The position numbers and the translations under genes are program-made. A DNA stretch of 64,000 bases, taken from the IMG/VR virus record IMGVR_UViG_3300045015_000053; one strand, written 5' to 3'. Source of the stretch: a virus. Its lineage: Duplodnaviria; Caudoviricetes. The notes beneath the pieces were generated by a model. The model was not told the origin of the DNA, made no database searches, and saw only the letters and a list, made by a program, of their open reading frames with translations. The stretch's first letter is position 1. Each line of letters opens with the position of its first letter. Shown here piece by piece: positions 4,686-48,304 of this stretch.

Positions 4686-5174
4686 ATGATCACCCACAAT
4701 GACATCGAATCGCAACTGGATCAGTCGCCCCAGAACTGGTGGTTGAGGAAGCACTACGCGGGGTGGCTGGCCGACAATGGCAACGTGCCTCTGGCGCGGG
4801 TGCAGTTGTGGCTCGCGAAGAACGAGAAATGCCCTGGCCCGAAGTGTGTGCTGGAAGGCAAGTGGCACGAGGCGACTTGGTGGTCGGAAGATCAGGCTGG
4901 CAAAAGGTGGACCCTCGATTACAACGAGAGCGTTCACATCAAGCCGGAATGGTGTTTGCCGCACAAGGTCTTCAATGCGACCAAAGGGTATCTGGTTGCA
5001 GACCGGCGTGACAAGGGGTTCCACAACAAGTTTGCCCGTTCTTGGAACGGTCGGCGTGACGCGGAAGCGGCCATGATGATCTTCGCGGTGGAAAAGAAGA
5101 AGAAACTCGTTCAGTTCCGGTCGCTGGATGCGTTGTGGGATTACGACGAACCCTTGAAGCCGCTGTTTGAGTAA
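4686..5174 (+). CDS. Hypothetical protein
   Basis: Trp-rich ORF coupled to the upstream ORF. Confidence 0.6.
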   Translation: MITHNDIESQLDQSPQNWWLRKHYAGWLADNGNVPLARVQLWLAKNEKCPGPKCVLEGKWHEATWWSEDQAGKRWTLDYNESVHIKPEWCLPHKVFNATKGYLVADRRDKGFHNKFARSWNGRRDAEAAMMIFAVEKKKKLVQFRSLDALWDYDEPLKPLFE

Positions 5175-5260: not shown

Positions 5261-5349
5261 TCCTGGGTAGCATACGTTGGTTAAATGCAGACGGCTGTTA
5301 ACCGTCAGAGGGGGAAACCTCTCCGCTGGTTCGATTCCAGCCCCAGGAG
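5261..5349 (+). tRNA. tRNA with Asn(GTT) anticodon and a long variable arm
   Basis: Acceptor TCCTGGG/CCCAGGA, arm GACGG-CTGTTAA-CCGTC, variable hairpin AGAGG...CCTCT. Confidence 0.8.
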
Positions 5350-5353
5350 CTTT

Positions 5354-6848: not shown

Positions 6849-6923
6849 GGCCGATTGATCGTAGTAGTGGTAACTCGCTTGTTTTACACGCAAGAGTCGG
6901 GGGTTCGATTCCCTCATCGGCCA
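6849..6923 (+). tRNA. tRNA-Val(TAC)
   Basis: Acceptor GGCCGAT/ATCGGCC, loop TTTACAC. Confidence 0.85.
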
Positions 6924-6935
6924 CTGTTAGTTGAT

Positions 6936-7006
6936 AGATCCGTGTAGGTGGTCCTACAGCGAAACTCCAAATCTCGCCAAACCGGGTTCGATTCCTGGCG
7001 GATCTG
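6936..7006 (+). tRNA. tRNA-Trp(CCA), short D loop
   Basis: Acceptor AGATCCG/CGGATCT, loop CTCCAAA, T loop TTCGATT. Confidence 0.7.
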
Positions 7007-7031
7007 CTTCAAATTCTTCGATTAGTTTGGA

Positions 7032-7061
7032 GTCTTCATGACTAAGATAAGTCATGAAGAC
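7032..7061 (+). promoter_or_regulatory. 12-bp inverted repeat sequestering the HNH start codon
   Basis: GTCTTCATGACT-AAGATA-AGTCATGAAGAC; ATG 7054 lies in the 3' arm. Confidence 0.65.
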
Positions 7062-7485
7062 TAAACATTGCAAACGATGTTCGTTGGACTTGCCAACGTC
7101 ATCATTCTCGAAGAACTGCCGTAAATCTGATGGCCTTCAAATCAGTTGTAAAAGCTGTATGAAGGCAATGAACGCCAAACACTATGTCCAGTACAAAGAC
7201 AAGCAGTTGGCGATCAACCGAGAAAACAAACGCATCATCCGCGAAAAGGTTCGATTTCTGAAAGAGGCGAACCCTTGCGGTTGTGGCGAGTCTGCTGTGT
7301 GCTGTTTGGACTTCCACCATATCGGGAAGAAGTCTGACACGATTTCAAGGATGTTGTCCAACACATACAGTTGGGAGCGACTGGAAGCTGAACTCAGGAA
7401 ATGTTGTGTGTTGTGCGCCAACTGCCATCGCAAGCATCATGCGGGCGAAAAATTGAAGTTCAAATGCGTTCCGATTTTGTTGTGA
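7054..7485 (+). CDS. HNH endonuclease with N-terminal Zn finger
   Basis: CxxC...CKSC, LDFHH, CCVLCANCHRKHH. Confidence 0.85.
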   Translation: MKTKHCKRCSLDLPTSSFSKNCRKSDGLQISCKSCMKAMNAKHYVQYKDKQLAINRENKRIIREKVRFLKEANPCGCGESAVCCLDFHHIGKKSDTISRMLSNTYSWERLEAELRKCCVLCANCHRKHHAGEKLKFKCVPILL

Positions 7486-7501
7486 TTCCTGGCGGATCTG
7501 C

Positions 7502-8221
7502 TTGATGATCAATCCCAACAACCCGTACACCAACATGCAAAAAAGGGTGTACGGCTCGCAGTCGCCGTGGTGGTCGGTTCATCGACGCGATCCCGTTGTC
7601 GGGACGTTCGACGCCCACAACAAACACTCCGACTACGAGTTGTTGTTCAAAGGAATCGACACCAAAGAACTGGTCGCACTCGACTTCGGATGTGGTCCGG
7701 GTCGAAACATCGTGAAGTACGCCGGCCGCTTCCGTCGTATCGACGGCGTGGATCTCGACTACGCCAACCTGCTCAACGCGAAGAGTTGGGCCGATCACAA
7801 CGGGTTGAACGGGTTCAAACTGTACCTGTGCAACGGTGTGGATCTCGGCGGCATCGGAAATGACGAGTACGATCTGGTGATGACGACGATCACCCTTCAA
7901 CACATCTGCGTACACGAGATACGCCAGAACTACTTCCGAGAGTTCTGTCGGGTGCTGAAGCCGGGCGGTCGGTTGTCGTTCCAAATGGGGTTCGGGTCGC
8001 CGTCGCCGAACGCGGTGAGCTATTACGCGAACCACTACGAGGCGACCGCGACGAACAGGGGTTGCGACACCGAGGTGTCCGACCCGGATCATCTAAAAGA
8101 AGATCTGGGCAAGGCCGGTTTCGATGGGTTCGAGTACGATCTGCGGCCACCGGGTCCGGGTGACTATCACCCCCAGTGGATCTTCGTGCGGGCGAGAAGT
8201 CGCGCTCAGGAGGATAGATAG
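7502..8221 (+). CDS. Class I SAM-dependent methyltransferase
   Basis: LDFGCGPGRN motif I, GVD, TLQHI, RVLKPGG. Confidence 0.85.
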   Translation: MMINPNNPYTNMQKRVYGSQSPWWSVHRRDPVVGTFDAHNKHSDYELLFKGIDTKELVALDFGCGPGRNIVKYAGRFRRIDGVDLDYANLLNAKSWADHNGLNGFKLYLCNGVDLGGIGNDEYDLVMTTITLQHICVHEIRQNYFREFCRVLKPGGRLSFQMGFGSPSPNAVSYYANHYEATATNRGCDTEVSDPDHLKEDLGKAGFDGFEYDLRPPGPGDYHPQWIFVRARSRAQEDR

Positions 8222-12298: not shown

Positions 12299-12370
12299 CG
12301 GCCTGTCGTTCAATGGTTAGGACAGTGGTCTGATAAACCGCAAACGGTGGTTCGACTCCACCCAGGCCGA
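12299..12370 (+). tRNA. tRNA-Ile(GAT)
   Basis: Acceptor CGGCCTG/CAGGCCG, arm GTGGT-CTGATAA-ACCGC. Confidence 0.9.
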
Positions 12371-12374
12371 CTTC

Positions 12375-12404
12375 TGTCTGATAATTTTTCCAATTTATCA
12401 GACA
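12375..12404. repeat. Inverted repeat copying the Ile anticodon loop, upstream of HNH
   Basis: TGTCTGATAA-N10-TTATCAGACA; GTCTGATAA is shared with the tRNA. Confidence 0.8.
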
Positions 12405-12422
12405 ACATGGCTATAATACGTC

Positions 12423-12890
12423 ATGGAGAAATACTGCTCGACATGCAAGCAGACCAAGCTTTGCTCTGCATTCAACAAGAACCGCTATCGCAAAGACGGC
12501 CTGCAAGTCAGGTGCAGAGATTGCGACAAAGCCAGATCAAAACAGAGGTATCAGGGCGAGTACAAAGACTACTACATCGCCAAGAGCCAAGAGACGCTGG
12601 CTGCACGACGCCAGTGGTTCGAGGATTACAAGAAAGACAAATGCTGTTCACGGTGTGGCGACCTTCGCTGGTATGTGTTGGAGTTTCACCACCGTGACGG
12701 CGTTGACAAGGAAGACGAAATCTCTCGAATGGTCTTCAACAAGAGATCGGTCGATAAGATCATGCTGGAGATAGCCAAGTGCGATCTGGTGTGCGCCAAC
12801 TGCCACCGTGAATTGCACCACATGCAAAAACAGACGGGCGGTTCGACCCCGCCCTTCCGTACTGACGGGTTTCCACCCAGTAAAAACTAG
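12423..12890 (+). CDS. HNH endonuclease with N-terminal Zn finger
   Basis: CSTC...CRDC, LEFHHRDG, KCDLVCANCHR; TATAAT upstream; 3' end contains a tRNA T-arm remnant. Confidence 0.85.
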   Translation: MEKYCSTCKQTKLCSAFNKNRYRKDGLQVRCRDCDKARSKQRYQGEYKDYYIAKSQETLAARRQWFEDYKKDKCCSRCGDLRWYVLEFHHRDGVDKEDEISRMVFNKRSVDKIMLEIAKCDLVCANCHRELHHMQKQTGGSTPPFRTDGFPPSKN

Positions 12891-13603: not shown

Positions 13604-14001
13604 CGGGGACAAGTGTTCCGCTTCTGCTATAATTTGGGTATGAGCAGAGCAGAATACCGTCGCGAGTATCGTCGCCGTCGCAACTTGACCGACCCGAACT
13701 GGCGCAAAACAGAAAACGCAGATCAACTGAAACGGATTGAGCGAAATCGCCAGTTCGTAAATGAATTCAAGAAAAACAAAGGTTGCAAGTATTGCCCGGA
13801 GGCGGCTGTTTGTTGCCTCGACCTCCATCACCGAGATGGTGAAGAGAAAGACAAGGCGGTTTCCTACATGGTCAAAATGGGCTATGGTTTGGAACGCCTA
13901 AACGAAGAGATTCAGAAGTGTGACGTGGTGTGTGCAAACTGTCATCGCAAGTTGCACGCTGGTCACGTTCTGAATAGTAGATAACGGGGACAAGTGTTCC
14001 G
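13604..14001. repeat. 17-bp direct repeat (tRNA-Pro 5' end) flanking an HNH gene
   Basis: CGGGGACAAGTGTTCCG at 13604-13620 and 13985-14001. Confidence 0.9.
13640..13984 (+). CDS. HNH endonuclease
   Basis: CKYC, LDLHHRDG, KCDVVCANCHRKLH. Confidence 0.85.
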   Translation: MSRAEYRREYRRRRNLTDPNWRKTENADQLKRIERNRQFVNEFKKNKGCKYCPEAAVCCLDLHHRDGEEKDKAVSYMVKMGYGLERLNEEIQKCDVVCANCHRKLHAGHVLNSR

Positions 14002-14056
14002 GTACGCACCCGTGCTTTGGGAGCATGGAGAGCGGGTTCGATTCCCGCGTCCCCGA
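13985..14056 (+). tRNA. tRNA-Pro(TGG)
   Basis: Acceptor CGGGGAC/GTCCCCG, arm CGTGC-TTTGGGA-GCATG. Confidence 0.9.
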
Positions 14057-14418
14057 CTTATGCGACACCTACTCAACTTTCTGATCCTGCTGACGGCGGT
14101 CATCGGATTGCCATTCGGGTGGATCGTTGCTTGGAACAAGCCCATTGGCAAGAAGCTCCAGACGAGCTTCGTGTGCGGCGTAGTTCTTGTAGCGGCCGTC
14201 ATCCTGTACTTCAGCTTGAGGTGATTTGTGGGTGCAAAATCAACCATAGACATCACGCGGGCCGAGGCGTTGGCTTTCATCATGGACGCTTTGGGTCGTG
14301 CCGACAACGAGACGATTTCGCGTGTTCTTGAAGAATTGAACGACTGCGTTCGTGAGAGCGGCGACTACTCGAACAGTCTCGGCTTGCACAACTTTGCGGT
14401 TCGGGGCTAAATAACCAC

Positions 14419-37520: not shown

Positions 37521-40504
37521 TGGAGGTCGTCAATGAACATCGCCAAAGCAACCAAAGCGTTCGAGATCATTTCCAAGTACGACAAGAAGGGCGAGATCGG
37601 CGTCGGCCACGACGTGCTGTACGCCGGTGGCGGGAAGAAAGCAGAACCAGAGAAGATGGAGAAAGCCGATCTTGAGGCTCTTGAAAAGCTCGGCTGGATG
37701 TGGAGCGAAGAAAGTTATTCTTGGTTTTGTTTTGTGTGAACCACGCTCTACTACGCGCATGGAAAAACAAACATGCAGTTCGCACCCTGCTGCCAAAAAG
37801 TGCAAATCCGCTTCCTCCCCCAACTGGGGCCGTCAGGGGCAGTGGGTGAAGTATGCCGCTCACGAGAAGTGCTGCAACCAGAAGGATGACGGGATGACAC
37901 ACGGGCCGGACGACCACTACGTCCACGGCCGCAGCGAGTACGATCTCCCGCTTACCGGGGGATTGTGTGGCGTCGGGATCGGCGGCAAACGCAAGCTCGC
38001 CAAGTACGCCTCTTCGATGGACAACTGGGCCGAAGCCTATATCGAGTCCGAACTCGCACACGTCGAAGAGTTGCGGAAACTGGGCGAGCGGTTCGTGGCA
38101 CTCGACGGCGCGTACCGGGCCAGACTGAGGAAGACCGAGAACGAGTACGCCGAAGCTCTCGAACAGGGTTTCGAGGAAGCTTACGCGGTCGTCGTAGAAG
38201 TTCAGGCCGAACTGAAGAAGGTCAAGGACGAGCTTGTGCGGTGCTACGAGGTGATGTCGCGGTGTTGCCCCGGCGAACTGCCGAAGCAAGACGCGGGTGT
38301 TGAGAAGGACGAGTGGCCGAGCATCAAGGAAGCCGGTTGTTGCAACCGCAAGCAAGTTCGAGTAGCATGAATAAATAGTGCCGATGGCTTGGCACATGGC
38401 CCGTCCGCTGGTGCGGCGTTGAGGTTTCGACCCTCGACCGAGCAGTCCGATTCTGCTATGGGTCTTTATGGGACTTTTCAAACACAGGGTCTGGGACCGT
38501 TCAAAGCAGACGTACTTCATCTTGCGCCGGGGTACGCCCTGGAAGGTCATGGACATGAAGGGCGAACGCACGGTTGCTGACTACCCGGCGTTCCTTTACA
38601 ATGGTCTGTTGGAAGAACGTGTCTGTTTCGCCGCGAGCGACGAGGCAGTTGTCGAGATCATGAAGAAGCACGCCGAGGGGAAGTTCCCGTGAAAGCGAAC
38701 GAACGCAAGATGCACGTCGAGCTTAACAAGCGATGGCTGTCCGAGGACAACCGCCTGCCCCGGTGGAACCATCTGAGGGACCGCTGTGGGTTGGAGCCGC
38801 TGACGCTCGAACAGGCCGCTGAACTGATGGCGGTCAACAAGCAAGTCGATAAGGACATCAGGGAATACTTGGAGGGTTGATGAAGAAGTACGTTGCCGTT
38901 TTGAAAGAAGGCAGTGACACGTCAAAGTTTCAAGCGGCAGTTGAAGAGATGGGCGGGGTGGTCCGCGATGCGAACGTCAAATACATCTTGGTCGAACTCC
39001 CCGGCGCGGCCGGCGACTTGAAGAAGCTCCGAGCGATTCCCGAAGTGAGAATCGCCGATACCGTCAAATACGCCAAACCAGCGGGGAGTTGAAGCATGTG
39101 GGCTTACAAAGCGGATACGACCGTCTACGTTGAGGAAAGCTGGTACGACATCCTGTTTCAAGGGTTCATCGCTTTCTGGTTCGCTTTTTGGATCTTGATC
39201 GTTGCCGTTTTGTTCTCGCCGTTTGGAGCGGCGTGGGCGGCATACCGTCAATACAGGTACTCAAACTGCCCGCTGCCCGAAACCGAAGTTCGCGAGCGAG
39301 CGCATTTGGGGTAACGCGAGGGCTGTGACGTGAACGAAGATTTCGATTCTTTCGTGGTCTACTACGTCGCTTGGCACGAAGGCGAGTTCAACCTCCAGAC
39401 CATGAAGAAGATGGTGCTGGATGACATCGGCCAAGAGGGTCTGACGAACGCTCTGATCGTTTTCAGAGCCAAGCGTTTGGAGCGTGAGTCGAGGGGCGAC
39501 TACCGCACATTGTTCCAAGCAATGCAGGCGTCACCATGAAGCCCGGCAAGTACATCTGGAAGGCCAAGCACCACGCGGTCATTCACAACGGCAACGAGTA
39601 CAAATTGTTCTCGCCCGCGCCACGCATCTTCTCTTCGAGCGTATACGACATCAACTCCTACTCGGACTTTGAGTACGGGATCAACTCGCGGTTGGTCCTG
39701 AGAATGAACAGATTCTTTGTCACGGTTGACGACCGCCATCTTCAAAAATGGGTGTGCGGCGGCTCGGTCGCTTATCCGACAGGATGGAACGGTGACGCGA
39801 ACGGGGTGTATTTCGGCGGAAGGGTGAACTGATGAAGTGGGAAGTTTCAATTCCGCCGCCGTCCGCAGCGAGGATGGCGGGAACCGGGAAGCTGTTTGTC
39901 CAGGTGTCTGACGGGTGGTGTGCGCACCGACCCGAACAACTCTTCTTCGCCCCCGAACACACGACCGTCCAGTTCGACGTGGGCGACGATTACGAGTGGA
40001 TCGGTGCGAGGACGACGATGGACGGGCCGAACTTCACGGTTTGGATCGAATACAATAACTCAACTGGCAGTCGCCAAGAGAAGATCAGGCTCGTGCCTGG
40101 GAAGGTGGAATAATGGGTCAAAAGCAACTGACACGCGAACAGATCATCAACAGGATCATCGGTTTCGATTTCTTGGAGTGGTACGAGCGGCTTCTCGACA
40201 TCAAGGCCGTAATTGATCTTCCAAAACCAAAGAACGGCGTGTATCATCAAGGTCCAGTGACAAAGCCCAAACCGGCTTCGATCTTTGAAACGGGAACTGT
40301 CGGATTCGCTCCGACCGATGAACCACGTCGAAAGTACCGGCACAGGTTCGATTCCGTGTCAACGGAAAGCGAATTCGGGGACACGAATGAGTGGAACAAG
40401 CGGTCGAAAGCGAAAAAACTTGGAAAAGGCTGAACCTTTGGCGTACTAGATACGTCAAAGTTGTGGTCACACCTGCGGGCAGGTTTTGTCCCTCCCGCAT
40501 CGAA

Positions 40505-40573
40505 GCCCCTGCCAGCGGTCTGGCTCTATCCCTCCGAAGGATGGTTGCGAAAGTCCGACTCTTTCCAGGGGTA
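40505..40573 (+). tRNA. tRNA-Arg(CCG), short D arm
   Basis: Acceptor GCCCCTG/CAGGGGT, arm TATCC-CTCCGAA-GGATG, T arm GAAAG-TCCGACT-CTTTC. Confidence 0.75.
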
Positions 40574-40577
40574 TTTT

Positions 40578-40610
40578 GTACCTCCGAAGCAATTTTTGCT
40601 TCGGAGGTAC
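40578..40610. repeat. Perfect 15-bp inverted repeat copying the Arg anticodon loop, upstream of HNH
   Basis: GTACCTCCGAAGCAA-TTT-TTGCTTCGGAGGTAC; CCTCCGAAG is shared with the tRNA. Confidence 0.85.
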
Positions 40611-40622
40611 TCGTTTACAGGT

Positions 40623-41099
40623 ATGAAAACATGCCACAAATGTTGCAAGTGCAAAGAACTTGAACAGTTCCCGATCAACCGTAGTCGCAAAGATGGTCGT
40701 AGTGAAACTTGTTTACTCTGTAAACGAGAGTACAATCGTATCCACTACAAAAACAATCGCTCTTATTACATGGACAAGGCTCAAGCGGCAAGAGATCGTT
40801 TGAAGGAGGCTTTTCGTCAATTGAAAAGCGAGATGAAATGCAGTCGTTGTCCAGAGACTCATGTTGCGGCTTTGCAATTCCATCATACCGATCCTTCTAA
40901 GAAGGAATTCTCCATTTCGATGGCGGTACAATCCAATTGGTCAAAAGACAGAATCATGAATGAGATTGCTAAGTGTGAAGTTTTGTGCGCCAATTGCCAC
41001 CTCAAACATCATTGGAGCGAACGGCATGCTTCCGACCTCCCGATGGAAGTTACGGCAAACGCTCATCAAGGTGTACCAGAGCAAGATCGAACACCTTGA
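40623..41099 (+). CDS. HNH endonuclease with N-terminal Zn finger
   Basis: CxxC...CLLC, LQFHH, KCEVLCANCHLKHH. Confidence 0.85.
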   Translation: MKTCHKCCKCKELEQFPINRSRKDGRSETCLLCKREYNRIHYKNNRSYYMDKAQAARDRLKEAFRQLKSEMKCSRCPETHVAALQFHHTDPSKKEFSISMAVQSNWSKDRIMNEIAKCEVLCANCHLKHHWSERHASDLPMEVTANAHQGVPEQDRTP

Positions 41100-42096: not shown

Positions 42097-43005
42097 CGAT
42101 GTCGGCTATGGCCCCGTGCAAGCCGTTGCGGGTAATACAGTCGTCACCAACCAGTGGAGTTTTTCGTGCTGTCGTACACGCTGCACCGCTCGCAGAGGTT
42201 CGAGATGAAGGTCGTCGGAAAGACAACTCAGGATCTCCGAAAAGCGTATGAGTCGGAGTCCGAAGAGTACAAGGCATTTGCATTCGGTTTCGCCGCAGGC
42301 CAAGCTGAGAAGGTACACCTCGGCGTGTGCAAAGCGGCAATGTTCCGGCCGGGGCCGGAACACATGGAATGGTACTTGCCGCTTGTCGAGAAGGCCGCTA
42401 TTGCTTACGGTTTGCACGTCGTTGTCCTCGACTCCGGGTGCAAAGATACGCCGAAGGAAATTTGGATTTGTGTCGATGCCAAAGACGTAGGCGGTTGGTT
42501 CGAGTTTGATGTCAACTCGGTGCCGTGGCACGCGGCTCGCGCCGCCGCGTGTGGCATCCCGCCACGCAAGTGGGACTTCGAGTATCACCTCCGCAAAGGT
42601 TACGGTGAAAGGTGTGACTGATGAATAGCATCGCCGACAAACTACAAGCTTGAGAAATTCGACAGCATGATCATCAAGCTCTACGACGGCTGCGGTGACC
42701 TTCTTGAGTCTTGGGTGTTGCCCGATGTCAAGTTGTTTTCGATCACCGACGAGGGTGAAGGCTTTGATGCCCCCAACGGCGAACACGTCTACTCTTTTTC
42801 TGTTACTCACGGCGTTCCGAAGTACACCTGCTTCAAGGAACTGGCATGACGATCATTGCTTGGCACTGGATTGACGACCGAACGATGATGGTTCTTGCCG
42901 ACGATCTCCATTGGTATCGACTCGAAAACGTCTACCCGCAGGCCATTCATTTTGACGGATTGGATATGAGCGACAAAGACGATTTGACGTTCACGATGCC
43001 CTCCG

Positions 43006-44187
43006 TCAAGTACCAGCCTTCTTCTTGAAAGCCACGACGACCGCAATGGGTTCGTCCTGCCATCCGGCCGCGTTCAGAAGTTGGCCGTTGATGATCGGCA
43101 TGATGTGGGCTTCGTGTTCGGCTGTTTCCGAGATTGATGCTACGCCGAGTTTGATGTTGGAACCGGCACGCAGTTCTTTGACCGGCCTACCTCTCCAGGT
43201 TCGCGTCGGCGAGGTGTCCCTCTCGAAGCCACGGTCTTCGATCTCGAAGACGGTTTGAGGTAATGTGCGTTCAACGTCGTCGGCCGCTGATTGTGTAACG
43301 GCCTGAATCGCGACCGCGCTGCACTCCCTTCGACGCGGCAACACACTTTCTGTTACGCCCGGTGTTGCATCCGGTTTTTCGCCCGGCACAACAGCCGCGA
43401 GCAGCTTGGCGTTCTTCTTCATGTCTTCGATTACCGACAGGTCTGTGAGCCTGTAGTACGTCATGTTCATTGGCGGTTTTCTTTGGATCGGATACGAGTG
43501 GGCGAGTTCGGTTCCTTTCTTGGTTGTCGCCATGTAGAACTCGCACCGCGTGTAACTGTAACTGGACATGCTCTGCCAACGCTTCACAAGGTCGGGGAGG
43601 TTGGTTTCCAGTGTTTTGGGATTCATCAGGCAGATGCTGTGCGTGCCGTCTTTTCTGTAGTTGATTTGAACGCCGACCGTTTTCAACTTGCTGTCGTCGG
43701 AAAGGCCGAACTTTTCGGATTTATCGGTCAACGGCACCTCGAACCCGACTTTCGCACTCAGTTCTCGCGCCATCCTGATGAACTTTGCCCCGTGGTCTTC
43801 GCTCAAGTTGCCCGTGACGGCGAAATAGACGTGGATCATTTCGTGGACCAGAATTGCGTCCAATCCGGCTTCAGATTTCTTGAACGTGTTACTGATCTGC
43901 ATGCGGAGGGTTCCCTCCTTGATTTTTCCGCCGTGGTACTTGTCCTGCAATTTTCTGCGAACAAGCATCGGGTTCGGCAGGTTGTGCGGGTCCATGATCA
44001 CGGTAAACAATACGACGCCGCCGACGCCTTTGAGTTTGGCGTATTCGATGGGGATCTCAGGCAACTCGCCCCTGAAGAGGAGTTGGTTGTAGTGGGCGTA
44101 TTTCTTTTGGAGGTCGTACTCGGCGAAGTCGATGGCGGTGGCCGGTTTTGCTTCGACGGATTCGAGCCAATTTTTGAAGCTGAACAT
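43006..44187 (-). CDS. SprT-like zinc metalloprotease with CTS-like N-terminus
   Basis: YAHYNQLLFRGELP, LVHEMIH, HGAKF; MFSFKNWLES; TAAATA on the minus strand at 44194-44199. Confidence 0.75.
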   Translation of the reverse strand: MFSFKNWLESVEAKPATAIDFAEYDLQKKYAHYNQLLFRGELPEIPIEYAKLKGVGGVVLFTVIMDPHNLPNPMLVRRKLQDKYHGGKIKEGTLRMQISNTFKKSEAGLDAILVHEMIHVYFAVTGNLSEDHGAKFIRMARELSAKVGFEVPLTDKSEKFGLSDDSKLKTVGVQINYRKDGTHSICLMNPKTLETNLPDLVKRWQSMSSYSYTRCEFYMATTKKGTELAHSYPIQRKPPMNMTYYRLTDLSVIEDMKKNAKLLAAVVPGEKPDATPGVTESVLPRRRECSAVAIQAVTQSAADDVERTLPQTVFEIEDRGFERDTSPTRTWRGRPVKELRAGSNIKLGVASISETAEHEAHIMPIINGQLLNAAGWQDEPIAVVVAFKKKAGT

Positions 44188-44193
44188 TGAGGT

Positions 44194-44232
44194 TATTTAG
44201 CCGTCTGAATTTGGACCTTGAATTGTTAAATA
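44194..44232. promoter_or_regulatory. Divergent pair of TAAATA late-type promoters
   Basis: TATTTA 44194-44199 (minus) and TAAATA 44227-44232 (plus), each 5-6 nt from an ATG. Confidence 0.6.
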
Positions 44233-44237
44233 GCTTC

Positions 44238-45125
44238 ATGGAAGAAGTTGAAATCCGTGGCGAATACTGGGTCCAGAACGGTCAGGTCGATTTCGCGGAC
44301 GGCGACATCGGCGATCAGAACCACGAAGGCATTGCCATTGACCACGTCGTCAGCAAATACGCTGATGAAGTTTCTAGTTTGGCAGACGAGTTGAATCTCG
44401 GTCACGAAGCACTCGATTCAGGCTACAACGGCTATGATTCCGAGGCCGTGTCGAAGCTTTTGTGGCGCGTTTACGAAACCTTGACTGTCGGTCGAGATCC
44501 CGACGACGAAGACGAACAGGGCGAAGAACGCGACCCCATTAGTGACGAAGAAGCCGACAGTTACATCATGAAAGAATTACGGTGTAACGCGGACGCCTAC
44601 CAGATTTTGCTCGGTCGTGGTGACGCAAGGCTTTACGTCATGAAGTACGAGGGGTGGATGGCGATCCGTTCGCACTCAATTGAGGTTTACGGGTATTCAG
44701 ATGCGATGCGTCCGCAAGTGGCGAGTGCCATCCAAGATGTGATTTACGAAGAACATAATTTGACCGACGACGAGTACGACCCAGAGACGGTTGAAATTGA
44801 TCTCCACGATCTCAAAAACAACAAATACTACAGTGTGACTTTGGCAGAGCTTTTGGCCCCACCAGCGATGCCGACGACTCAGACGCGGAACATTGACGAC
44901 GGCAAGAACGCTTACACTGGGAAGTTGAAAGACACCTCCACGGCAAGTTCACGCCCGGATCGCGCCGAGAGTGATCCGCAGTGGAACAAGAACAAGAGCG
45001 TGATGGGCAAATGGAACAGAGCCGTTAAGGACGTGACGGGTCAAGACCTGTGGCGTGGCACGTCGGAATGGCGTGTTACCTTCGGGGAATGGCTTGCGGA
45101 AAAGCATCCAGATCTACTAGAATAA
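44238..45125 (+). CDS. Acidic hypothetical protein
   Basis: Leaderless ATG after TAAATA; ends TFGEWLAEKHPDLLE. Confidence 0.7.
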   Translation: MEEVEIRGEYWVQNGQVDFADGDIGDQNHEGIAIDHVVSKYADEVSSLADELNLGHEALDSGYNGYDSEAVSKLLWRVYETLTVGRDPDDEDEQGEERDPISDEEADSYIMKELRCNADAYQILLGRGDARLYVMKYEGWMAIRSHSIEVYGYSDAMRPQVASAIQDVIYEEHNLTDDEYDPETVEIDLHDLKNNKYYSVTLAELLAPPAMPTTQTRNIDDGKNAYTGKLKDTSTASSRPDRAESDPQWNKNKSVMGKWNRAVKDVTGQDLWRGTSEWRVTFGEWLAEKHPDLLE

Positions 45126-45171
45126 AATTCGACGCGGGATTGGTATATCGGCTGTGCCGAAGATTTCCGAC

Positions 45172-45243
45172 GCGAGCGTAACTCAATGGTAGAGTGCTTG
45201 CCTTCCAAGCAAGCTGTTGTGGGTTCGAGTCCCATCGCTCGCT
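45172..45243 (+). tRNA. tRNA-Gly(TCC)
   Basis: Acceptor GCGAGCG/CGCTCGC, arm CTTGC-CTTCCAA-GCAAG. Confidence 0.9.
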
Positions 45244-45278
45244 CTTGCCTTCCAAATTTGACAAATTTGGAAGGCAAG
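45244..45278. repeat. Perfect 16-bp inverted repeat copying the Gly anticodon arm, upstream of HNH
   Basis: CTTGCCTTCCAAATTT-GAC-AAATTTGGAAGGCAAG; CTTGCCTTCCAA is shared with the tRNA. Confidence 0.9.
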
Positions 45279-45292
45279 TTGCTAAATACGGC

Positions 45293-45691
45293 ATGGTTAA
45301 AAAGTGCTGTATGTGTAAGCTGGATAAACTGCTCGATGCTTTCAAAAGCAATCCGCGACGACATGACGGATTGCAATCTCAATGTGCTGAATGCCACGCC
45401 GAGTATCGTCGTAAACATTACCTCGCTAACCGCGAGAAGTACATCAAGAAAGCAGCAAGCTGGAAGAAGAATTTCCAGGCTTGGTGGAAAGAGTACAAGA
45501 AGCAGTTCAAGTGTTCACGCTGCCCAGAACAACACCCTGCGTGCATCCAATTTCATCATCCCAATGACGACAAAGAGTTAGGTGTGTCGCAATGGGTTGG
45601 CAGAGGTGATAAAGAACGGGTTTTGGAAGAGATTGCCAAGTGCATCCCTCTTTGTGGCAACTGTCACGCTAAAGAGCATTGGAAAGACTAA
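45293..45691 (+). CDS. HNH endonuclease with N-terminal Zn finger
   Basis: CCMC...CAEC, IQFHH, KCIPLCGNCHAKEH; TAAATA 45283-45288. Confidence 0.85.
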   Translation: MVKKCCMCKLDKLLDAFKSNPRRHDGLQSQCAECHAEYRRKHYLANREKYIKKAASWKKNFQAWWKEYKKQFKCSRCPEQHPACIQFHHPNDDKELGVSQWVGRGDKERVLEEIAKCIPLCGNCHAKEHWKD

Positions 45692-45718
45692 CTCCCGTAT
45701 CCCGCTCTGGAGAATCAC

Positions 45719-46099
45719 ATGAGAGCATTCATCGCCGCCCTGTTGCTTTCCACCAGTCTTCAAGCGGCTCCCGTTCCGCCCGGTCCTCGGCCGGACCCTC
45801 TCGCCACCCCTCTGCTCGGCGTTCGCGAATCACAAGTCCTCTCGCCTAGTGGCGTAGTCATCGGGACGGTCATCAGGAACTCGGCGGCTGAGAAGGCGGG
45901 GATCAAGGAAGGTGACATTCTGGTAAAGTTCGGTCTAAATTCCATCGACAGCTTCCAAAAGCTCCGAGAGACTGTTATCCTTTACCGGCCGGGTGCCGTT
46001 ATCGAGGTCGAAATCGAGCGGGACCGCAAGAAACTGATCCTGAAAGTCTGCCTGACAGAAATGTTGCCAGACGAGCCGGTGATTATCCTCGAACCCTGA
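45719..46099 (+). CDS. Secreted PDZ-domain protein
   Basis: Signal peptide; LLGV...V..NSAAEKAGIKEGDILV. Confidence 0.8.
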   Translation: MRAFIAALLLSTSLQAAPVPPGPRPDPLATPLLGVRESQVLSPSGVVIGTVIRNSAAEKAGIKEGDILVKFGLNSIDSFQKLRETVILYRPGAVIEVEIERDRKKLILKVCLTEMLPDEPVIILEP

Positions 46100-46107
46100 G
46101 AACCCGC

Positions 46108-46659
46108 ATGAGCAAGCTCATCGACTTCCTGCGTGGCGAAGGAACAGCAGAAGGCAGGACGGTCGATGAGATCGTGGGGATGTCCGATGCGGCGTTAGAA
46201 GTCGCGCATAACTGGGTTCAGTGGGCCTTCCCCCTCCAAGTCGCCAGCAATTTCAACCCAGAAGCTCCACTTCTGACGGACGATGAAATCAAGATCGTCC
46301 GTAACGATCCTGTGATTCAAGAGAACTTCGACCGGCTGTGCGCCCGGTTTTTGGAGTTCTTGGGCCTGACTGAAGACGACTGTGGTGTGTTGGAGGGTCC
46401 GCGTTTTTGGGATCGACACCCGTTCGTTTGGAAGTCTTTCAACCATAACTACCTTCGCGTGACGCGGTTCCTTGAGAGCATGCGGCTGTTCGGTCGGGAC
46501 TATCTGAGCGCCTCTGTGTTCGAGTGTCTGAGGCGACTTTCGGGTGGCGGCGACATCGCGAGCAGTGAAAACGCGATGAAGTATTGGGCCAAGACTCAGG
46601 AGAAGAATGATCAAGGACGTTACACTGGAAGCACAACAGCAACTCCAACTACTGGCTGA
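46108..46659 (+). CDS. OGFr-N-like domain protein
   Basis: LE..HNWVQWAFPL...NP.APLLT, NHNYLRVTRFL.S. Confidence 0.75.
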   Translation: MSKLIDFLRGEGTAEGRTVDEIVGMSDAALEVAHNWVQWAFPLQVASNFNPEAPLLTDDEIKIVRNDPVIQENFDRLCARFLEFLGLTEDDCGVLEGPRFWDRHPFVWKSFNHNYLRVTRFLESMRLFGRDYLSASVFECLRRLSGGGDIASSENAMKYWAKTQEKNDQGRYTGSTTATPTTG

Positions 46660-47017
46660 GACGTTCGGACTCGACCCGGCGACCGCTTACTTCAAGGTCG
46701 AAGCCAGAATGCGGTTCCCGCCGCAATTCGTCTGGTTCATTTCCGTGGCCGATTTTTATGACCCGAAGGAATTCGAGCTACGCGAGCTTTATGGGCTTCA
46801 TTTTGCAGTCCAGAAGGGCGGCGCGATCTTTCTGACTGAAGCCACTCTCGATTACGACACCAAGCTTTTGAAGGACAACCGCCTGTTCGCCCCGACCAAC
46901 ACCCAACTCGACAAACCCGTTTGGCCGCGTGGGTTCGCTCTGCTCGATCAGAAGACCGAGTATTTTTCAACTTGACATGGAGGCCGTTCGTGCCGATTTT
47001 TCACTCTGGAGGTGAAC

Positions 47018-47533
47018 ATGGCAAAAATGGCGATCCCGTCAATTGGCAGTGTCATTGTGTTGACGGAAGAGTGGGATTTCGATCTCTACTTCGACTACAA
47101 GAACTACCCGCTCATCCAGGCTCTGTACGCCGGGCCTGAGTACGTCGCGCCGCCCATCCCGAAGGACCAAGCTGCTTACTACAAGAACAACACGAAGTGG
47201 TGGGACCAGTACAACAGAAAGCAGCACGGCACCAAGCCCGAAGAATGGCACGGCGACGAGCGATACCGCGTCATGAAGGCAGAACACCCGAATGCGGTTG
47301 GCGTCACTTCTCGTGAAAAGCATTGGATCAAAGAGGATCGACCCTATCTTGCCATCCGTTTACCGGCGGGAACGCCGTTGAGGGTTGACCGGGTGCAGAT
47401 CAAGAGGGGGTTGGATGTTTTTTCCAACTTGTACATGGGCATCACTAAAGAGTGCCTCAACAAGAAGTTACGCGGGAAACGCTTCTGGGCGACTTTGAAG
47501 GATGTCAACCGAATGATTTGCGAGGTAATCTGA
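47018..47533 (+). CDS. Hypothetical protein
   Basis: SD GGAGGT. Confidence 0.65.
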   Translation: MAKMAIPSIGSVIVLTEEWDFDLYFDYKNYPLIQALYAGPEYVAPPIPKDQAAYYKNNTKWWDQYNRKQHGTKPEEWHGDERYRVMKAEHPNAVGVTSREKHWIKEDRPYLAIRLPAGTPLRVDRVQIKRGLDVFSNLYMGITKECLNKKLRGKRFWATLKDVNRMICEVI

Positions 47534-47589
47534 GCCGGGTATACTTACATAGGTAGGCGGGACGTGTGGACGCACGGCCCCGCTAACTT

Positions 47590-47728
47590 CCGGGCTTCCA
47601 CACCGCCTTGAGCCGCAAGGCTCACACTTGGCGAGGCGACATCAAAACGCCTAATAGCCCACCAAAGCGTATCATTTCGTCGTTTAGCCGGTCCATGTCT
47701 CCGAAGGCGGTGTGGAACTCGGTTTTTT
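47590..47728 (+). ncRNA. Long-stem-closed 3' RNA element A with U-tract
   Basis: CCGGG-CTTCCACACCGCCTTGAG pairs with CTCCGAAGGCGGTGTGGAACTCGG, then T6. Confidence 0.55.
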
Positions 47729-47803
47729 CTTTTTGGACTTGACGCGGGGCTTTCCCGGCTCCAGAATGAGTGACACAACGAAACACGCGAAGGGGACACG
47801 ATC

Positions 47804-48304
47804 ATGGGCGAAGCCAAAGTGCAAGCGGAAGACTCGGAGATCAAGATCAGCTTGGCGAAGCTGATGAAGGTCAAGAACCGTCTGGCGGGCCGCATCGCTT
47901 CGGTCGTGTCCGAGATTCAGTCTTACAACTCCGTGGTCAAGAACTCGGAAACGCCGGACGTGCGTGAGTTGAACGAGAAGCGGAAGCAGATGGTCGCCCA
48001 GATGATCAAGTTGAAGGTCACGCTGGACGACGCGAACCGCGCCGGGCAACGCGAGCGGATCTATCAGATCGCGGAGAAGAAGAGTGAACTGGCGTGGCTC
48101 CGCACGCTGAACACGCGACACGGGTCGCAGCGGGGATACGACAACGAGGTGATCGAGTACGTCGCGGCCTTCCGCAAGCAGGAAGTGGACGACACGGTAC
48201 GCCGCCTCGAACGCGAGATCGATGAACTTCAGGACGCCATCGACGCCTTCAACGCGAGCCGCAAGGTGGCCGTTGACGCGGAACTGTTCGCGCTGGTGTC
48301 CTAA
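47804..48304 (+). CDS. Coiled-coil protein, DIP1984/DUF6847-like
   Basis: SLAKLMK.K..L...I, E.D.LQ.AID.FN pattern (recognised from memory). Confidence 0.5.
   Translation: MGEAKVQAEDSEIKISLAKLMKVKNRLAGRIASVVSEIQSYNSVVKNSETPDVRELNEKRKQMVAQMIKLKVTLDDANRAGQRERIYQIAEKKSELAWLRTLNTRHGSQRGYDNEVIEYVAAFRKQEVDDTVRRLEREIDELQDAIDAFNASRKVAVDAELFALVS

Follow-up and report, generated by a model that had tools for sequence, protein, structure and literature searches.

To our knowledge, homing endonucleases are thought to persist in essential genes only inside self-splicing introns or inteins, or between genes. The locus described here raises the question of how an HNH endonuclease gene could come to lie within a transfer RNA (tRNA) gene of a huge lake-water phage (Duplodnaviria; Caudoviricetes), together with a second, complete tRNA gene for the same codon. 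It was found in a stretch of 64,000 nucleotides (nt), hereafter the window, from IMG/VR virus record IMGVR_UViG_3300045015_000053, where the resident tRNA-Gly(UCC) gene carries an insert at 45134-45707 and the old gene's ends stand on both flanks. Coordinates refer to the window except where they are called genome coordinates, which count along a 188-kb fragment of the phage. An explanation that we consider likely is that an HNH homing cassette entered the resident gene without an intron and replaced the stretch between its anticodon loop and T-loop with ~520 nt, in which the HNH gene is preceded by a complete, divergent tRNA-Gly(UCC) and by an anticodon-loop palindrome.

The two ends of a tRNA-Gly gene and what lies between them

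All features of the locus are read on the + strand, apart from the palindrome, which has none. The 5' remnant of the resident tRNA-Gly(UCC) (45134..45171) begins with the acceptor strand GCGGGAT and continues through the D arm and the anticodon-stem 5' strand to include the entire 7-nt anticodon loop with TCC; an earlier reading made from the letters alone (the sequence-only reading) had recognized GCGGGAT and the D arm but had let the fragment end there. The exact left junction is uncertain because a 7-nt repeat, CGACGCG, occurs at both 45130 and 45168, which leaves the final 1-3 bases of the remnant ambiguous. The substitute tRNA-Gly(UCC) follows directly (45172..45244, the 3' end falling at 45243 or 45244), a complete and canonical gene of a divergent lineage with the acceptor strand GCGAGCG, called by ARAGORN and matched by the Rfam tRNA model (RF00005) over its full length with 71.1 bits (gathering score 29), and only ~68% identical to the resident lineage. 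Next come a perfect palindrome (45244..45278; inverted repeat I1, direct repeat D1), a TAAATA box (45283..45288) that ends 4 nt 5' of the HNH start codon, and the HNH gene itself (45293..45691; 132 amino acids (aa); phrog_2255 E 2e-25, phrog_3106 E 2.6e-19), which is the sole open reading frame (ORF) in the 520-nt insert. The 3' remnant of the resident gene (45691..45707) begins in or just past the HNH stop codon and consists of the T-loop end, the 3' strand of the T-stem, ATCCCGC and the discriminator. The acceptor strands of the two remnants, GCGGGAT and ATCCCGC, are complementary in 7/7 pairs (inverted repeat I11), as the sequence-only reading had stated, and its nested order of fragments, intact divergent tRNA-Gly(TCC), palindrome and HNH gene at 45134-45706 was recovered throughout. 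In all, the resident gene has lost 18-19 nt (the 3' strand of the anticodon stem, the variable loop, the 5' strand of the T-stem and the T-loop start) and gained ~520 nt.

The gene upstream of the insert (44187..45125, + strand, 312 aa, function unassigned) served as synteny anchor. Two orthologues from public assemblies, P0002 (82% identical, contig L094) and P0003 (72% identical, contig L095), are each followed by a tRNA-Gly locus. In L094, where gene order is kept on both sides, this locus is a single intact tRNA-Gly(tcc) of the resident lineage (4912-4983; Rfam 48.3 bits), directly followed by a 122-aa gene that is the orthologue of the window gene at 46607-46975, and it contains no HNH gene, no GCGAGCG allele and no tRNA fragments. 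The 5' remnant in the window is identical to the first 38 nt of this intact tRNA at 32/38 positions and the 3' remnant to its 3' end at 14/16. The only acceptor difference is pair 4:69, which covaries (G4:C69 in the window, A4:T69 in L094). We do not regard the fragments as chance resemblances, because the tRNA to which they align stands intact at the orthologous place in L094 and the acceptor change is compensated. The sequence-only reading had asked for just such an HNH-free relative; L094 provides it, in the form GCG(A/G)GAT...ATC(T/C)CGC, and the outcome named as its refutation, an HNH-less relative with the GCGAGCG allele plus fragments, is absent there. Presence of the nuclease gene is thus polymorphic at a syntenic locus: it is absent from L094, where the target is intact, and present in the window and in L091-L093, three copies of this phage fetched from other samples that are identical to the window across 45100-45760.

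The second relative, L095, has a PDZ gene downstream like the window, and the same resident tRNA lineage is broken there in the D-loop, with 13 nt left upstream of the break and everything from about position 23 left downstream. The order of the insert is reversed, so that the HNH gene reads into another complete tRNA-Gly(tcc) (Rfam 66.5 bits). This invasion of the same target gene is independent, older or decaying, because its HNH shares only 30% identity with that of the window, is frameshifted in the zinc-finger part and has CANDH instead of CANCH. One syntenic locus is therefore seen in three states: intact in L094, invaded by tRNA, palindrome and HNH between anticodon loop and T-loop in the window, and invaded by HNH and tRNA in the D-loop in L095. 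The second hit, by a different HNH with a whole tRNA-Gly(UCC), supports the combination of a nuclease and a replacement tRNA as a recurring design.

The remoter orthologues of the 312-aa gene, P0005 and P0009 (40-48% identical), lie in other neighbourhoods without a tRNA and are not informative; the large contigs that bear HNH homologues (L011, L014, L015, L026 and L046) have no orthologue of the flanking gene; searches of viral contigs with each flanking protein alone gave no relatives; a distant blastn search of 43000-48000 against a phage GenBank collection returned generic tRNA matches only; and neither the new tRNA nor the resident 5' fragment was matched when viral contigs were scanned for the exact patterns. 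As a side observation, genes for a PDZ-domain and an OGFr_N-domain protein lie 3' of the cassette at 45719-46659 and are found in L095 but not in L094.

In the mechanism that we propose, the enzyme, probably as a dimer, would recognize tRNA-Gly(UCC) genes via the anticodon-loop region and cut the HNH-less allele between anticodon loop and T-loop, and the break would be repaired off a cassette-bearing template. On the right side, repair would join in the conserved T-loop and leave the old 3' end behind the HNH gene, as in the paralogous Trp cassette described below. On the left side, homologous exchange would have failed with so divergent a donor tRNA; the join would therefore be illegitimate and strand the resident 5' half upstream. 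The imported tRNA would preserve glycine UCC decoding and would presumably not be cut.

The HNH nuclease and the palindrome upstream of it

The 132-aa protein consists of an N-terminal zinc-ribbon-like module (CxxC...CxxC), a long helix and the HNH core. The HH...N...H motifs (FHH, CxNCH and a terminal H) and four CxxC pairs are invariant across six paralogues and 31 orthologues, and the window HNH retains 19/19 of the residues that are invariant in the 31 orthologues. Many of the orthologues are 55-73% identical to it, while the paralogues in the same genome reach at most 44% (<=44%). An AlphaFold2 model of the protein has a pLDDT of 93. A PDB sequence search with the orthologue profile gave no match, Foldseek and VIA-align gave no clear structural neighbour, the long helix drawing coiled-coil noise, and no GIY-YIG family was among the matches of the window HNH in Pfam and PHROGs. 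Modelled as a homodimer, the protein reached an ipSAE of 0.54 against 0.00 for the best control, with runs agreeing in 100% of contacts and a partner pLDDT of at least 79. A mark of 0.54 was reached by 20/30 proteins solved as one-chain pairs and by 1/23 solved as single chains, counts that hold just roughly here since the homodimer run used its own alignment. The model suggests that the enzyme probably acts as a dimer, which would fit two half-sites and a double-strand cut.

The palindrome has two 17-nt arms (45244-45260 and 45262-45278) with 1 nt between them and 100% complementarity, and as single-stranded DNA it is predicted to fold with -17.9 kcal/mol (z -7.1). Its core is the Gly-UCC anticodon loop CTTCCAA with its complement TTGGAAG, and 12 nt of the anticodon arm of the new tRNA recur in its left arm. 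In 9/9 distinct close orthologues inspected, the start codon is preceded by an inverted repeat with TTCCAA...TTGGAA as its core, with arm extensions and spacing that vary by locus. Each of these orthologues adjoins a tRNA-Gly(tcc) in otherwise unrelated surroundings. A tRNA-Gly(tcc) lies at most 140 nt away (<=140 nt) in the ten closest metagenome loci and in L097, L099 and L103, and among the orthologues its position alternates (upstream in L097, L111-L113 and L115; 4-8 nt downstream in L099, L103 and L110). Debris of tRNA-Gly genes was also noticed in this clade: L112 has an isolated anticodon arm upstream (1-344) and a ~55-nt 5' portion after the HNH gene (739-800), and L111 has the 3' stump of a different tRNA-Gly allele after its HNH gene (1881-1915).

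Across the wider HNH family, the palindrome changes with the identity of the neighbouring tRNA, with loops of Trp (CTCCAAA), Ile (CTGATAA or CTTATAA), Leu (CTTAGAA), Lys (CTTTTAA), Pro (TTTGGGA), Gln (CTCTGA) and Glu (CTTTCAA). A tRNA lies within 150 nt of the HNH gene (<=150 nt) in 19/80 of the viral and 56/80 of the metagenomic loci fetched. Among 54 non-redundant family loci with a neighbouring tRNA, the anticodon-loop 6-mer of that tRNA is present in both orientations 5' of the start codon in 18; 2000 permutations averaged 4.2 such loci and never exceeded 11. By analogy with known systems, the palindrome's most likely role is that of an operator, a target-mimicking site that the enzyme would bind without cutting. 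Two other roles were tried and rejected: as an intrinsic terminator it has no T-run behind it and a terminator scan finds none there, and TTGGAA as a -35 box would stand 4 to 12 nt from the -10-like box across orthologues.

The TAAATA box has counterparts (TATAAT, TAAGAT, TATATT) 5-6 nt before the start codon in paralogues and orthologues, and it may be the -10-like element of a nearly leaderless HNH transcript; a sigma-70 consensus scan found no full promoter at the box. A TATAAT-like box 4-6 nt before the start codon, without a Shine-Dalgarno sequence, is found in most HNH genes of the family (e.g., 45283-45292, 7040-7053 and 12409-12422), an arrangement that suggests leaderless or near-leaderless transcripts.

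Cassettes at other tRNA genes

The 188-kb fragment, an estimated 37% of the phage genome, has 50 tRNA genes and, from this family, nine ORFs with an HNH domain, one of which has two. In 6/9 the HNH match begins 49-56 nt 3' of a tRNA gene on the same strand, and in a seventh 259 nt; several of the HNH genes are flanked on both sides by tRNAs for one amino acid, which usually share an anticodon. In the Trp cassette (6936-7518), an intact tRNA-Trp (6936-7007) is followed by a spacer with the reverse complement of its anticodon loop, the HNH gene (7054-7485) and an exact 18-nt copy of the tRNA 3' end, which begins in the HNH stop codon and, within the tRNA, in the T-loop, the same start as that of the Gly 3' remnant. 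Compared with the HNH-free relatives L192 and L193, where a tRNA-Trp of the same lineage lies 2 nt before a methyltransferase start, this locus differs just by the spacer with the HNH gene and by the 18-nt copy. The Pro cassette (13604-14057) is built from the other end: positions 13604-13620, just in front of the HNH gene (13613-13984), repeat the initial 17 nt of tRNA-Pro(tgg) (13985-14057), and the HNH stop codon abuts the intact tRNA-Pro. In the Asp, Glu and Gln cassettes, the HNH ORF enters the next tRNA by 12 nt and ends at the TAG or TAA of its D-loop; the Asp cassette (1267-2053) has the double-HNH ORF (1368-1994) between two divergent tRNA-Asp genes, and the Glu and Gln cassettes lie just outside the window, at genome 69239-69843 and 71906-72508. 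The Ile cassette (12299-12890) consists of tRNA-Ile(gat), a hairpin that copies the anticodon loop (GTCTGATAA...TTATCAGAC), TATAAT 5 nt before the start codon and the HNH gene, the 3' tail of which has a degenerate T-arm-like stretch.

Whole tRNAs are involved in several other genomes. In L136, the 5' half of a tRNA-Gly ends exactly at the anticodon loop, which is also the left arm of the palindrome, and is followed by an HNH gene and an intact tRNA-Gly. In L192 (2200-2375), just the last ~17 codons of an HNH gene remain, followed by a new tRNA-Val(tac) and by the 3' stump of a resident Val-like tRNA that is intact in the window (6853-6923), with an apparent 9-nt anticodon loop, an Rfam score of 38.3 bits and no ARAGORN call; the L192 locus is thus the reciprocal of the Gly case. 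In L051 (2131-2719; IMG/VR UViG 3300029120_000070), a tRNA-Met(CAT), the gene for which is intact in the relative L063 (2710-2783), is split cleanly in the anticodon loop by a nuclease gene and a new tRNA-Met; the nuclease belongs to the PD-(D/E)XK type (PF11645, E 4.5e-16; top PDB match 2OST, weak, E 0.04), and no intron was detected in the insert. A nuclease joined to a substitute for the part that it breaks is, on these comparisons, a recurrent design, flexible in the amount of tRNA carried and shared by no fewer than two families of nuclease.

Two further HNH paralogues have no called neighbouring tRNA. One (40434-41099) has a T-arm-like stretch upstream; the other (58948-59661) has a helix-turn-helix-like extension at its C-terminus and, upstream, a palindrome, TTGCAAAA..TTTTGCA, that resembles the anticodon loop for UGC (Ala).

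Competing explanations and known systems

The sequence-only reading had taken tRNA and HNH together as the mobile unit. The second hit of like design in L095 favours this, but paralogues carry as little as 17-18 nt of tRNA and the two genes show no co-divergence. The unit is flexible rather than a fixed pair, because the carried piece of tRNA varies, from 17-18 nt up to a whole gene in the paralogous cassettes, and the divergences of HNH and tRNA are uncorrelated. The minimal mobile element could accordingly be the HNH gene with a short copy of a tRNA end, and the whole tRNA may have come along by accident, through co-conversion with a donor whose HNH gene directly followed its own resident tRNA-Gly. 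The 18 nt and 17 nt of the Trp and Pro cassettes, the lack of co-diversification and the tRNA-Gly genes on either side of the HNH gene in orthologues all speak for this, yet whole-tRNA replacement recurs independently in L095, L136, L192 (Val, with a remnant HNH) and L051 (with an unrelated PD-(D/E)XK nuclease). As the full account of the Gly locus we think it unlikely, though worth keeping in view; it overlaps with homing of a nuclease plus substitute more than it excludes it. Somewhat more doubtful still is that the arrangement is kept for the benefit of the phage, domesticated and not purely selfish, with substitutes that escape host tRNA-cutting enzymes and a nuclease that drives tRNA duplication and turnover. 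Such a role has a precedent in SegB, which amplifies the tRNA gene that lets T6 escape Septu and co-localizes with tRNAs in many phages (PMC13096335), and it would suit a genome with ~50 tRNAs, many of them divergent isoacceptor pairs, and a cassette that is identical in each fetched contig of this phage. Against it, nothing seen here ties the new allele to resistance against a tRNase, and the decayed HNH copies (the frameshift and CANDH in L095, the last ~17 codons in L192) fit a selfish cycle of invasion and decay.

Two simpler histories fare far worse. Isoacceptor tRNAs are often paired in this genome, with HNH genes between several of the pairs, and an HNH gene might likewise have inserted between pre-existing tandem tRNA-Gly genes, one of which decayed later; the new tRNA, however, is nested within the old gene, whose 5' and 3' ends flank it, L094 has a single tRNA at the locus, and the old gene's middle is cleanly gone, not degenerate. 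The nested order already contradicts such a course, to which we give very little credence. We give practically none to an intron-like element, of group I or another kind, from which the old tRNA would still be made by splicing. Group I introns do occur in the anticodon loops of bacterial tRNAs, as does that of I-Ssp6803I in tRNA-fMet (PMC1995217), but no intron family was found in 44900-45900 even at E 1, where Rfam matched tRNA only, 18-19 nt of the would-be 3' exon are absent so that the exons make no complete tRNA, and a complete tRNA lies inside the insert. The HNH gene is therefore in neither an intron nor an intein, and the target is an RNA gene missing part of its length; on this point the sequence-only reading, which had proposed invasion without an intron, was right. 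Features of an integrase-type element are likewise missing: there is no tyrosine or serine recombinase in the 520-nt insert, and no direct repeat beyond the 7-mer brackets it.

Several points weigh against the homing of a nuclease with its substitute tRNA as we have set it out. No donor was found for the cassette, and the left junction shows no clear homology. At genome 68388-68459 the phage has a further tRNA-Gly(UCC), intact and of resident type, with an identical anticodon loop, and therefore the loop alone cannot specify cleavage and the substitute was maybe not needed for viability. The left arm of the palindrome fits the stem of the new tRNA and not that of the old one, which makes local duplication as plausible as a mimic of the target, and the half-site spacing of 1 to 12 nt is awkward for a rigid dimer. 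As for the protein, five HNH paralogues matched no Pfam family at E 0.01, Foldseek found the Gme HNH nickase (4h9d) and McrA (6ghc) weakly and just at E >1, and VIA-align gave a weak Z of 3.1 against 4h9d over residues 55-126. Finally, the divergences of HNH and neighbouring tRNA-Gly are uncorrelated across the clade (Mantel r -0.08, p 0.68, a test that is probably under-powered), which would mean either that the two do not stay paired over long times or that the signal in 72 nt is saturated.

The nearest studied system is SegB of phage T4, whose cleavage site in tRNA genes is the T-psi-C motif, which takes neighbouring tRNA genes along when it homes (PMC2330249), and which drives the tRNA-gene amplification behind the escape of T6 from the tRNA-cutting Septu defence (PMC13096335). 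Like SegB, the cassette HNH is encoded by a free-standing gene among phage tRNA genes and would recognize a conserved tRNA-gene motif; cleavage in the 3' part of the tRNA gene, co-homing of neighbouring tRNAs that replace the recipient's markers, and possible tRNA duplication are also shared, as proposed for the cassette. Unlike it, SegB is a GIY-YIG enzyme, lies between tRNA genes and not within one, and recognizes a T-psi-C motif common to many tRNAs without isotype preference; neither broken tRNA halves nor a nested substitute tRNA nor an anticodon-loop palindrome has been described for it. The window HNH would work like SegB but is no member of SegB or the Seg family. HNH genes within horizontally acquired tRNA clusters were noted earlier (PMC6582537).

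I-Ssp6803I, the homing endonuclease of a group I intron in tRNA-fMet, is aimed at the anticodon region (PMC1995217). The cassette resembles it and other group I tRNA introns in a nuclease apparently aimed at the anticodon region of one tRNA, an insertion at the anticodon loop and the retention of a working tRNA, but restores function by a second complete tRNA gene and not by splicing, with no ribozyme detected and part of the old gene deleted. The L051 nuclease shares the target region of I-Ssp6803I and is accompanied by a substitute tRNA instead of splicing. For the palindrome, the closest parallel is I-TevI, which binds an operator mimicking its own homing site (PMC2988022): in both cases a sequence that resembles the target lies just 5' of the endonuclease ORF, apparently at the promoter, but in the cassettes the mimic takes the form of a 7-nt anticodon loop repeated in inverted orientation at variable spacing, and its binding and any repression are putative. 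The cassettes also resemble mobile endonuclease ORFs of fungal mitochondria, in which a nuclease gene lies inside another gene and brings a duplicate of the part that it displaces, so that a stump of the original is left over; this substitute-end design is exactly that of the Trp and Pro cassettes, with 18 nt and 17 nt respectively, but the target is a tRNA gene and not a protein gene, and in the Gly case the whole gene is replaced and not its end.

We infer that at the Gly locus an HNH gene homed into a tRNA gene without an intron, and that the substitute tRNA rendered the event harmless. This would be a third route for RNA genes, by which the gene is broken and a working, presumably immune copy is delivered, and the case is unusually well documented, with one before state and two independent after states at one syntenic locus. 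In the literature, we found no paper on a nuclease with a complete substitute tRNA nested in a resident gene, and none on isoacceptor-specific HNH clades or anticodon-loop palindromes. A broader proposition, to which we give not quite even chances, is that isoacceptor-specific homing cassettes, each a small nuclease with a substitute tRNA or part of one and an upstream anticodon-loop inverted repeat that serves as address label and operator, shape the tRNA arrays of phages. If so, repeated invasion and decay would explain the divergent isoacceptor duplicates and tRNA stumps of huge phages and would provide a mechanism for fast turnover and duplication of tRNA genes in large phages. The palindrome would then be a simple rule by which such a nuclease is assigned to its target tRNA from sequence alone, and the family would be a source of small nucleases from nature whose DNA targets are short and predictable.

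Two other tRNA genes of the window deserve mention: second copies of tRNA-Lys(ctt) (602-685) and tRNA-Asn(gtt) (5261-5350) are 84 and 90 nt long, have large extra arms and adjoin copies of normal length.

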